Positions 483 through 4,387 of a stretch of DNA of 4,387 bases are shown here, one piece after another. This DNA comes from a virus (taxonomy: Duplodnaviria > Heunggongvirae > Uroviricota > Caudoviricetes). The DNA lies in IMG/VR virus record IMGVR_UViG_2711768059_000006. One strand, written 5' to 3'. The position numbers and the translations under genes were made by a program. The stretch's first letter is position 1, and each line of letters opens with the position of its first letter. The notes beneath the pieces were generated by a model. The model was not told the origin of the DNA, ran no database searches, and saw nothing but the letters and a program-made list of their open reading frames with translations.

Positions 483-509
483 AAAAAAGCCCGCCTGAAC
501 CGGCGGGCT
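483..509 (-). terminator. Rho-independent terminator candidate between lom and stf, read on the minus strand
   Basis: Plus 488-495 AGCCCGCC and 502-509 GGCGGGCT form a perfect 8-bp inverted repeat with a 6-nt loop (TGAACC). Plus 483-488 is AAAAAA, so on the minus strand the stem is followed directly by TTTTTT. It lies 27 nt downstream of the lom stop and 11 nt upstream of the stf ATG. Confidence 0.65.
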
Positions 510-535
510 GTCATAACACTGTGTTACCTGGCTAA

Positions 536-1135
536 TCAGAATTTATAACCGACACCCACGATGAAACCGTCAGTGCGCCAGTCACCACTGCCGGAGCCTT
601 CATAAGCAATATCAATGGCCACGGATTCGGTCGGGTTAAACTGCACGCCAGCTCCCCACGCCAGAGACGTGTTGCTGTGGCGACCGTCATCACTTCCGGT
701 CAGCACGTCGTGCGTTTTCCCCTTGTTGTCAATTACGCGGAGATAATCCCCGGAGAAAGTCGACACACGGCTGTAAGCCACACCCGCCATCGCATACGCG
801 CTGAACCATTCATTCACGCGCACAGACGGCCCCGCCATTACGCTGAACCAGCGGTTACGAACGGAATCTTCATGCCAGCGGGTATCGCTGTAATGGGTCA
901 GCTGGCGATTCTTGTCTCCTGCATAGCTGAATGACGTCACCATCCCCAGTGTGTCCGTAAACTCATAACGGTATTTCACGTTAATCCCGTTCAGATCATC
1001 GCTGCCGGGAACGTTCGTCGAGGCATGAAGATACCCCGCGCTCAGCGTGGACTGATGTTCAGACGCCCATGCAGGCGCACCGGATACGGCCAGACAAATG
1101 GCTGCGGACAAAATGGCGGCATAAAGTTTACGCAT
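536..1135 (-). CDS. lom: Outer-membrane protein Lom (Ail/Lom/PagC/OmpX family, 8-stranded beta-barrel); prophage accessory gene
   Basis: 199-aa ORF (ATG 1133-1135, stop 536-538). N-terminus MRKLYAAILSAAICLAVSGAPAWA is a typical Sec signal peptide with an A-x-A cleavage motif. The C-terminal segment ...AIDIAYEGSGSGDWRTDGFIVGVGYKF matches the C-terminus of lambda Lom as I recall it, including the terminal aromatic residue typical of beta-barrel outer-membrane proteins. Internal GINVKYRYE and SAYAMAGVA motifs are also shared. Position immediately downstream of J matches lambda. Confidence 0.9.
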   Translation of the reverse strand: MRKLYAAILSAAICLAVSGAPAWASEHQSTLSAGYLHASTNVPGSDDLNGINVKYRYEFTDTLGMVTSFSYAGDKNRQLTHYSDTRWHEDSVRNRWFSVMAGPSVRVNEWFSAYAMAGVAYSRVSTFSGDYLRVIDNKGKTHDVLTGSDDGRHSNTSLAWGAGVQFNPTESVAIDIAYEGSGSGDWRTDGFIVGVGYKF

Positions 1136-1140
1136 AATTA

Positions 1141-1146
1141 CCTCTC
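1141..1146 (-). promoter_or_regulatory. Shine-Dalgarno sequence for lom
   Basis: Minus strand reads AAGCGAGAGG-TAATT-ATG: GAGAGG with a 5-nt spacer before the lom start codon. Confidence 0.5.
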
Positions 1147-1156
1147 GCTTTTCTGC

Positions 1157-1183
1157 AATAAAAAAGGCGTCATTTCTGACGCC
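1157..1183 (-). terminator. Rho-independent terminator candidate just downstream of the J stop codon, read on the minus strand
   Basis: Plus 1166-1172 GGCGTCA and 1177-1183 TGACGCC form a perfect 7-bp inverted repeat with a 4-nt loop (TTTC). Plus 1157-1165 AATAAAAAA gives TTTTTTATT directly 3' of the stem on the minus strand. It sits in the 66-bp gap between the J stop (1202-1204) and the lom start (1135). Confidence 0.65.

Positions 1184-1201: not shown

Positions 1202-4387
<3,186 letters not shown>

Follow-up and report, generated by a model that had tools for sequence, protein, structure and literature searches.

The window, that is, the whole stretch of 4,387 nucleotides that was analysed, carries all of its genes on the minus strand, in the order J (1202-4387), lom (536-1135), and the start of stf (1-471), and it comes from a lambda/434-like E. 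coli prophage, where it forms the J-lom-stf junction. The same gene order is found in phage lambda. The J gene, which encodes the tail tip and of which the 3′ part lies in the window before the gene runs off it, has an open reading frame at 1202-4267 that continues to the window edge, in which Pfam recognises all of the tail-tip domains of lambda J; unlike J of phage 434, it shows two in-frame stop codons near the edge, at 4357-4355 and 4315-4313. Its DNA is 93.6% identical to that of lambda J over 1644-4384, whereas the receptor-binding domain, for which no DNA-level alignment to lambda was possible, occupies the last 149 codons (1202-1651). The stf gene, a side-tail-fibre gene homologous to lambda orf-401, is represented by its first 157 codons (471-1) before it runs off the other end; it contains the Pfam phage_tail_N domain (E 1.4e-73) and is ~87-93% identical to lambda at the DNA level. 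A 901-nt query around lom matched 213 phage records, with at least 80% query coverage in 160. With the whole window as query, matches were obtained in 5,009 of 5,426 complete genomes of E. coli, and in 3,623 of these the coverage was 80% or more; the number of copies per complete genome has a median of two and a maximum of 17. Few prophage segments are as common in E. coli as J-lom-stf. Public annotation already contains the gene with its family and position as well as both of the terminators described below, so that nothing in them is new, and as it stands the window is of little significance, being one further copy of a very common, already annotated segment.

The lom gene encodes 199 amino acids from an ATG start codon located ~60-66 nt past the J stop codon. 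Its 5′ leader (1136-1154) carries the Shine-Dalgarno sequence GAGAGG (1146-1141), 5 nt before the ATG; this leader is invariant in 79 of the 80 close loci, and distant alleles keep the pattern ..AAAA..GAGAGGT. The Pfam family PF06316 (Ail_Lom) covers residues 1-199 of 199 with an E value of 1.1e-120 and a score of 401 bits (cutoff 23), and PHROG 108, the ‘Lom outer membrane protein’, is matched with an E value of 3e-109. Inspection of the translation shows a Sec signal at the N-terminus (residues 1-24; MRK-LYAAILSAAICLAVSG-APAWA|SE) with an A-x-A cleavage motif, and a C-terminal ...GVGYKF that corresponds to a beta-signal with a terminal Phe. The intact gene, signal peptide, and conserved C-terminus described in the sequence-only reading, an earlier note on this DNA, are thus all present. 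Matches in the PDB include lambda Lom (9wso), OmpX (E 1e-18), and Ail (E 2e-17). An AlphaFold model shows eight strands with a mean pLDDT of only 52, obtained from an alignment of 33 close homologues, and was used for strand order only. Taken together, Lom is predicted to be a Sec-exported, eight-stranded outer-membrane beta-barrel of the Ail/Lom family. The chromosomal eight-stranded barrels OmpX, Ail, and PagC are homologous to it in fold, with ~25-30% identity, but Lom differs from them in being phage-borne and in having longer L1-L3 loops and a Lom-specific loop 4, SGSGDWRT.

Each of the two intergenic gaps contains a stem-loop followed by a T-run on the coding strand. The upstream one, an intrinsic terminator after J (1155-1184), consists of the 8-bp stem-loop GGGCGTCA-GAAA-TGACGCCT at 1184-1165, followed by TTTTTATT, with a hairpin energy of -13.0 kcal/mol. 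The one after lom (481-509) consists of AGCCCGCC-GGTTCA-GGCGGGCT at 509-488, with 8 bp, seven GC pairs, and a 6-nt loop, followed by TTTTTGT, and has a hairpin energy of -17.6 kcal/mol; the ribosome-binding site of stf, GGGGTGA (480-474), directly abuts it. The 66-nt contexts of the hairpins fold with z scores of -3.2 (upstream) and -1.9 (downstream). When a strict terminator rule (at least 7 bp, at least four GC pairs, and a T-rich tail) was applied to both strands of the window, only two matches were obtained, both on the coding strand and in the sole two intergenic gaps, compared with a mean of 0.027 matches in 300 dinucleotide shuffles of the window, none of which gave two or more. The minus-strand terminator candidates that had been proposed at 1157-1183 and 483-509 were therefore recovered at the same positions. 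A permissive Rfam search of the window found no known RNA family and returned two sub-threshold chance matches only, ST7-AS1_2 and Trp_leader at 481-563, the latter with 21.7 bits, below its gathering score of 41.

The pairing in these hairpins is maintained through sequence change. In an alignment of the upstream stem containing 12 distinct versions, taken from 80 close viral loci together with phages 2G7b and Stx1_499, both sides are changed in three of eight pairs (G-C to A-U, C-G to U-A, and A-U to U-A), pairing holds in 94.8% of cells, and the observed covariation score was reached by none of 500 shuffles; sliding the 3′ partner lowers the pairing to 34-58%. Moreover, unrelated stems occupy the same places in other phages and prophages (lambda, 434, Stx1_499, and Citrobacter and Salmonella prophages); five or more such stem sequences occur upstream of lom and four or more downstream. 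At the upstream site, the stem is CGTCCG/CGGGCG in lambda, GGGCACCT/AGGTGCC in Stx1_499, AGCGCTC/GGGCGCT in a Citrobacter prophage, and GAGCGCTC/GAGCGCTC in a Salmonella prophage, each with a T-run after it. At the downstream site, lambda has a remodelled apical part and keeps a 9-bp stem, and different stems are found in Citrobacter, in Salmonella, and in one further locus (L096). A hairpin and T-run are present on both sides of the gene in 145 of 153 lambda-type lom loci, and in the eight others there is either a junction with unrelated sequence, in some cases apparently an insertion sequence, or a single mismatch in the stem. The compensatory changes and the non-homologous stems at the same spots show that the pairing is under selection, and this applies to both flanking terminators across enterobacterial prophages. 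Both hairpins are real and conserved and are already annotated as terminators, and they are predicted to stop RNA polymerase.

The closest described relative is phage 434 (OL657226.1), in which the gene CPT_434_22, annotated as an ‘Ail/PagC/OmpX porin’, encodes 199 amino acids that are 97% identical to Lom of the window. It has the same J-lom-stf order and the same two hairpins in the same places, both annotated as terminators (18940-18966 and 19615-19642), and its upstream stem differs from that of the window in two compensatory pairs. Its J protein is only 54% identical in the receptor-binding domain, as measured over the last 200 amino acids. In lambda (NC_001416), lom (18965-19585) likewise lies between J and stf/orf-401 and has a hairpin and T-run on both sides, although the upstream hairpin has a different sequence and the protein is 47% identical to Lom of the window, an indel of 8 aa being located in L1. 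The layout with two terminators is nothing special to the window, being present in lambda and annotated in the 434 record.

The accessory nature of lom, which the sequence-only reading had also asserted, is supported by the comparison of J-stf junctions. In HK97, J is joined directly to stf without lom, and phages of the HK542/HK022 type carry cor and two other genes in the J-stf slot. A remnant of lom in the HK97 J-stf gap was considered and rejected, the sequence there being unrelated. The classic moron is composed of a promoter, a gene, and a terminator, and has a deviant GC content (PMC3594210; Juhala 2000, Cumby 2012). Of these properties, lom shows those of an extra gene at a junction that is empty in a related phage and of a downstream terminator of its own (509-488). 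Its GC content of ~0.53-0.57 against 0.47-0.58 in the flanks is not deviant. No sigma-70 promoter was found on the minus strand by a consensus scan, and in a PWM scan of the 800 nt upstream of lom the best score was 8.8 against a shuffle mean of 9.0, that is, no promoter above chance; the matrix was self-built, and weak, activator- or factor-dependent, and alternative-sigma promoters could escape such a scan. No promoter candidate was found at a conserved position among the various J 3′ ends found in front of one and the same lom allele in five lambda-type contexts, no sigma-E or PhoP-box-like motifs were seen by eye, and no mapped lom promoter or terminator was found in the literature searched, where a paper on lambda sRNA deals with other loci. 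The distance from the T-run to the lom ribosome-binding site is only ~14 nt, too short to accommodate a promoter. Lambda-type lom is without a recognisable promoter of its own, as had been noted for sigma-70 promoters from the sequence of the window. The earlier description of a classic moron layout could thus be retained for the accessory character and the downstream terminator, but not for the arrangement of terminator, gene, and terminator or the base composition.

A different arrangement is found in the lom genes of the 933W/VT2-Sakai-like Stx2 podophages (Sepvirinae). These belong to the same Pfam family, share the beta2 island and the C-terminal motif YE(G/S)SGSGDWRT..KF, and have a downstream intrinsic terminator, but their proteins are only ~41% identical to Lom of the window and contain insertions of 39 aa in L1 and 14 aa at L2. 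Their genes have the moron layout, with an upstream spacer of 20-29% GC, better promoter-like sites, and no upstream hairpin, and a hok/mokW-like gene comes next. A common simplification could be corrected accordingly: the textbook moron layout is present in 933W-type lom and absent from lambda-type lom.

In lambda, Q-modified RNA polymerase starting from pR′ reads through intrinsic terminators. It is probable that lom of the window is a late gene reached by such antiterminated polymerase and insulated in the lysogen, with termination and antitermination as the predicted switch. A canonical intrinsic terminator closes both J and lom, a short way in front of the ribosome-binding site of the following gene. 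During lytic growth, Q-modified polymerase from the late promoter would ignore both terminators, so that lom would be co-transcribed with the tail genes and its product made alongside theirs late in infection. In the repressed prophage, unmodified polymerase would stop at both terminators, so that stray transcription from inside J would have no access to lom, and any transcription of lom would be kept out of stf-tfa. Expression of lom in a lysogen, if any, would have to originate at a start that is weak, dependent on a factor, or located upstream, with partial read-through of the J terminator.

Instead of being a late gene, lom could be an autonomous moron with an undetected promoter of its own, expressed constitutively in the lysogen as a conversion gene for adhesion or serum resistance, in which case the upstream hairpin would merely end J. 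The junction without lom in HK97, which marks the gene as an add-on, and the terminator downstream of it are in keeping with this idea, as is the description of lambda Lom as expressed from the repressed prophage and moron-encoded (PMC7067206, PMC3594210). Further support comes from the 933W-like genes with their AT-rich, promoter-like upstream spacer and from phi24B, whose lom is expressed regardless of induction. However, the short distance between T-run and ribosome-binding site, the absence of a promoter-like site above chance or conserved across J 3′ ends, and the ordinary GC content all argue against it; a promoter inside J would need read-through of a conserved terminator, and lom was not detected in one lysogen array study. 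On balance, an autonomous moron seems unlikely for lambda-type lom.

The hairpins could also act mainly on RNA, as 3′-end stabilisers or processing barriers in the antiterminated late transcript that give J, lom, and stf different half-lives and yields. Both coincide with gene ends, lie on the coding strand, and show conserved pairing, and read-through would be obligatory in lytic growth, so that selection could act on the RNA. On the other hand, the T-run is kept with the stem in every variant, for which a pure exonuclease barrier would have no need, and such a role as the main function is considered highly improbable.

As regards published expression data, a passage of PMC12366544 (citing Liu 2013) gives a strong rise of Lom late in infection and a low level in lysogens, and co-transcription as a late gene would agree with this. 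The expression of lambda lom from the prophage given by PMC7067206 and PMC3594210, by contrast, would require a promoter that was unseen in the scans and in this respect speaks against a late gene insulated in the lysogen.

The divergence of Lom is distributed unevenly along the protein. As expected from the sequence-only reading, in which an N-terminal part diverged from lambda Lom was set against conserved C-terminal strands, Lom is 47% identical to lambda Lom overall, and 26 of the 28 residues at 172-199 are identical. The boundaries of strands and loops used here are approximate, being derived from the low-confidence AlphaFold strand order, from homology to OmpX, Ail, and lambda Lom, and from indel positions. 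With these boundaries, identity to lambda Lom is 2/10 in L1, 2/17 in L2, 10/36 in L3, and 6/6 in L4, and among the strands it is 4/15 in beta1, 10/11 in beta2, 3/11 in beta3, 9/11 in beta5, 9/11 in beta7, and 11/11 in beta8. When eight other alleles were compared with the window residue by residue, the mean identity was 0.31 in L1-L3, whereas the strands and turns within residues 25-157 reached 0.56 (p 1e-5). Large indels, of 40 and 14 alignment columns, are located in L1 and at the border of beta3 and L2. Within the 97-99% identical lom allele, polymorphic sites amount to 25 of 69 in loops versus 20 of 106 elsewhere (p 0.013). The alignment of homologues and mapping of variable positions, which had been suggested as a check, thus shows variation that is not even but enriched in predicted loops. 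The proposed diversification of exposed loops holds for L1-L3 but not for L4 (SGSGDWRT), which is predicted to be exposed and yet is the most conserved stretch of the Lom family (0.96 across nine alleles), and the signal peptide, beta1, and beta3 have also diverged from lambda.

Part of this pattern could be explained by mosaicism. Nucleotide identity to lambda rises from ~67% to ~93-95% at about position 612 of the window and is still high across the intergenic region and in stf, a step that marks a mosaic junction inside lom (600-625, codon ~175). The C-terminal 28 residues of lambda Lom, the lom-stf spacer, and the 5′ end of stf belong to one block of ~93% DNA identity. The spacer of 26 nt 3′ of the lom stop codon (510-535), which contains the palindrome TAACAC-A-GTGTTA (526-514), is identical between lambda and the window and nearly invariant across close loci. 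A second conserved segment, the island at 938-996 that encodes beta2 (GINVKYRYEFTD), has 85% DNA identity to lambda amid an otherwise unalignable stretch, and three natural chimeras of 207 amino acids (P0074, P0080, and P0103) switch allele type at this island, which marks it as a second recombination joint within the gene. Recent recombination alone was rejected as the source of the conserved C-terminus, as the motif is also present in the 41%-identical Lom of Sepvirinae in a different genomic context. The conserved C-terminus of Lom shows a pN of 0 and a pS of ~0.4, and these comparisons indicate that constraint and a mosaic junction both apply to C-terminal conservation.

The last 149 amino acids of J are identical at 147 positions to the ‘A8 gpJ’ of PDB entries 9wca and 9wcb, the second of which also contains OmpC, and the J tip of the window therefore most likely binds OmpC. 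Phage 434 is said to use OmpC too, a finding ascribed to Hantke in 1978. In lambda, J binds LamB. PDB entry 9wso contains lambda Lom together with the maltoporin LamB, whose sequence is the same as in the gpJ-LamB entry 8xcj, and a Lom-LamB complex appears to be present, judging from this co-deposition. It has been reported that over-expressed lambda Lom blocks lambda-vir and not T7, and exclusion or anti-adsorption late in infection was proposed by the authors (PMC12366544, 2025). Another small outer-membrane accessory gene located between J-type tip and tail-fibre genes is cor of HK022/HK542, phi80, and N15, and, as in the case of lom, a rho-independent terminator follows it; the product is unrelated to Lom, being a lipoprotein and not a barrel. 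Cor is a superinfection exclusion lipoprotein that blocks FhuA.

These observations raise the idea, tentative and rather improbable, that Lom is a receptor mask, so that, like cor beside J in FhuA-using phages, 434-type Lom would block OmpC as the receptor of its own phage, with L1-L3 carrying the specificity. With the receptor masked, neither progeny nor superinfecting phage would adsorb to an infected cell. Extended to the whole family, with Lom alleles as receptor-matched masks and the promoter-less layout as a late anti-adsorption device analogous to cor rather than a lysogenic virulence gene, the idea is equally doubtful. It would draw on the co-deposition of lambda Lom with LamB, on the selective block of lambda-vir, on the near identity of the J tip of the window to the J co-deposited with OmpC, on the presence of cor in the same slot in HK542, and on the behaviour of lom as a late gene without its own promoter. 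In addition, lom lies directly downstream of the receptor-binding gene J, as do the genes of receptor-masking exclusion proteins (Cor, Llp, lambda Lom-LamB). Against the idea, J and lom are so close together that an association of their types is predicted by physical linkage alone. In 29 loci, moreover, the partner of A8-like J tips, 70-79% identical to that of the window, is a Lom of quite another type, and L4, the most conserved exposed element, is identical across alleles. A strict co-variation of Lom type and J tip is unsupported as a rule. A PADLOC search gave no match. If the masking idea were true, Lom would move from a virulence factor to a phage-phage exclusion factor. Window-type Lom is found with two J tips, of which one is linked to OmpC through co-deposition in the PDB and the other is the different tip of phage 434 with its 97%-identical Lom, and as a lead for further comparison, Lom alleles may match the receptor to which the adjacent J tip binds.

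Several lom loci from other phages and prophages change abruptly at the two terminator hairpins. Upstream of lom, at the terminator that follows J (1155-1184), unrelated DNA begins exactly at or inside the hairpin in L004, L011, and L149, and the same is found at the hairpin downstream of lom (481-509) in L114 and L118. L004 and L149 retain only the 3′ half of the upstream hairpin, and in L011 the open reading frame upstream of lom has an end presumably resembling an IS66-family transposase. In a further locus, L020, the stem of the upstream hairpin is kept and the loop with its closing pair is inverted, from CCAGAAATGG to CCATTTCTGG, which reads as if the apical palindrome had been flipped.

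The stop codon of lom is separated from the downstream terminator by a 26-nt spacer (510-535, minus strand) with a perfect palindrome, TAACAC-A-GTGTTA (526-514, minus strand). The spacer is the same in lambda as in the window and shows almost no variation among close loci, whereas synonymous sites in the flanking C-terminal codons of lom differ by ~0.25–0.55. This near-invariant element could be a protein-binding site, a piece of 3′-UTR RNA, or a recombination linker.

The surroundings of lom were also compared with those in other phages. In the 933W-type phages (L085-L087), lom is preceded by a spacer of 20–29% GC and followed by its terminator and then by a small hok/mokW-like host-killing gene. 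The phage 434 record (L088, 3657-4901) carries a third annotated terminator 3′ of stf-tfa, past which NleB-like (pseudogene) and NleC-like type III effector genes are annotated; terminators and cargo genes thus punctuate the late operon at its tail-fibre end.

Within lom itself, two short direct repeats are present on the minus strand, each in two copies: TGGTTCAGCG occupies 850-841 and recurs at 808-799, and ATGGCGGG occupies 838-831 and recurs at 790-783. Compared with the 199-amino-acid form, database variants with lengths of 185, 183, 213, and 215 amino acids have lost or duplicated precisely the inter-repeat unit of 14 or 16 amino acids. Since the loss or gain of such a unit would remove or add approximately one strand, these length variants probably represent either alleles without activity or errors of assembly.

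A relative of the window's lom product (536-1135), lambda Lom, is found together with the maltoporin LamB in PDB entry 9wso, and the LamB sequence in this entry is the same as that in the gpJ-LamB entry 8xcj. The sharing of one entry by lambda Lom and LamB implies that the structure of a Lom-LamB complex has been solved; our literature search found no paper describing 9wso.

Close to the edge of the window, the J frame is interrupted by two in-frame stop codons on the minus strand, TAA (4357-4355) and TAG (4315-4313); the corresponding codons are GAA and TAT, respectively, in lambda and in the closest genome. A patch of ~125 nt around both stops (within 4260-4387) reaches no more than 83% identity in a comparison with 5,426 complete E. 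coli genomes, and a 24-mer taken from it has zero exact matches in IMG/VR; outside the patch, NZ_CP048604 matches the window at 98.6% identity. The patch is either a contig-end artefact or part of a decayed J of a defective prophage. At the other end of the gene, the C-terminus of J (1202-1651, minus strand), its receptor-binding domain, is identical at 147 of 149 positions to 'A8 gpJ 713' of PDB 9wcb and 9wca. The former also contains OmpC beside A8 gpJ, and OmpC is most likely the receptor of the window's phage.
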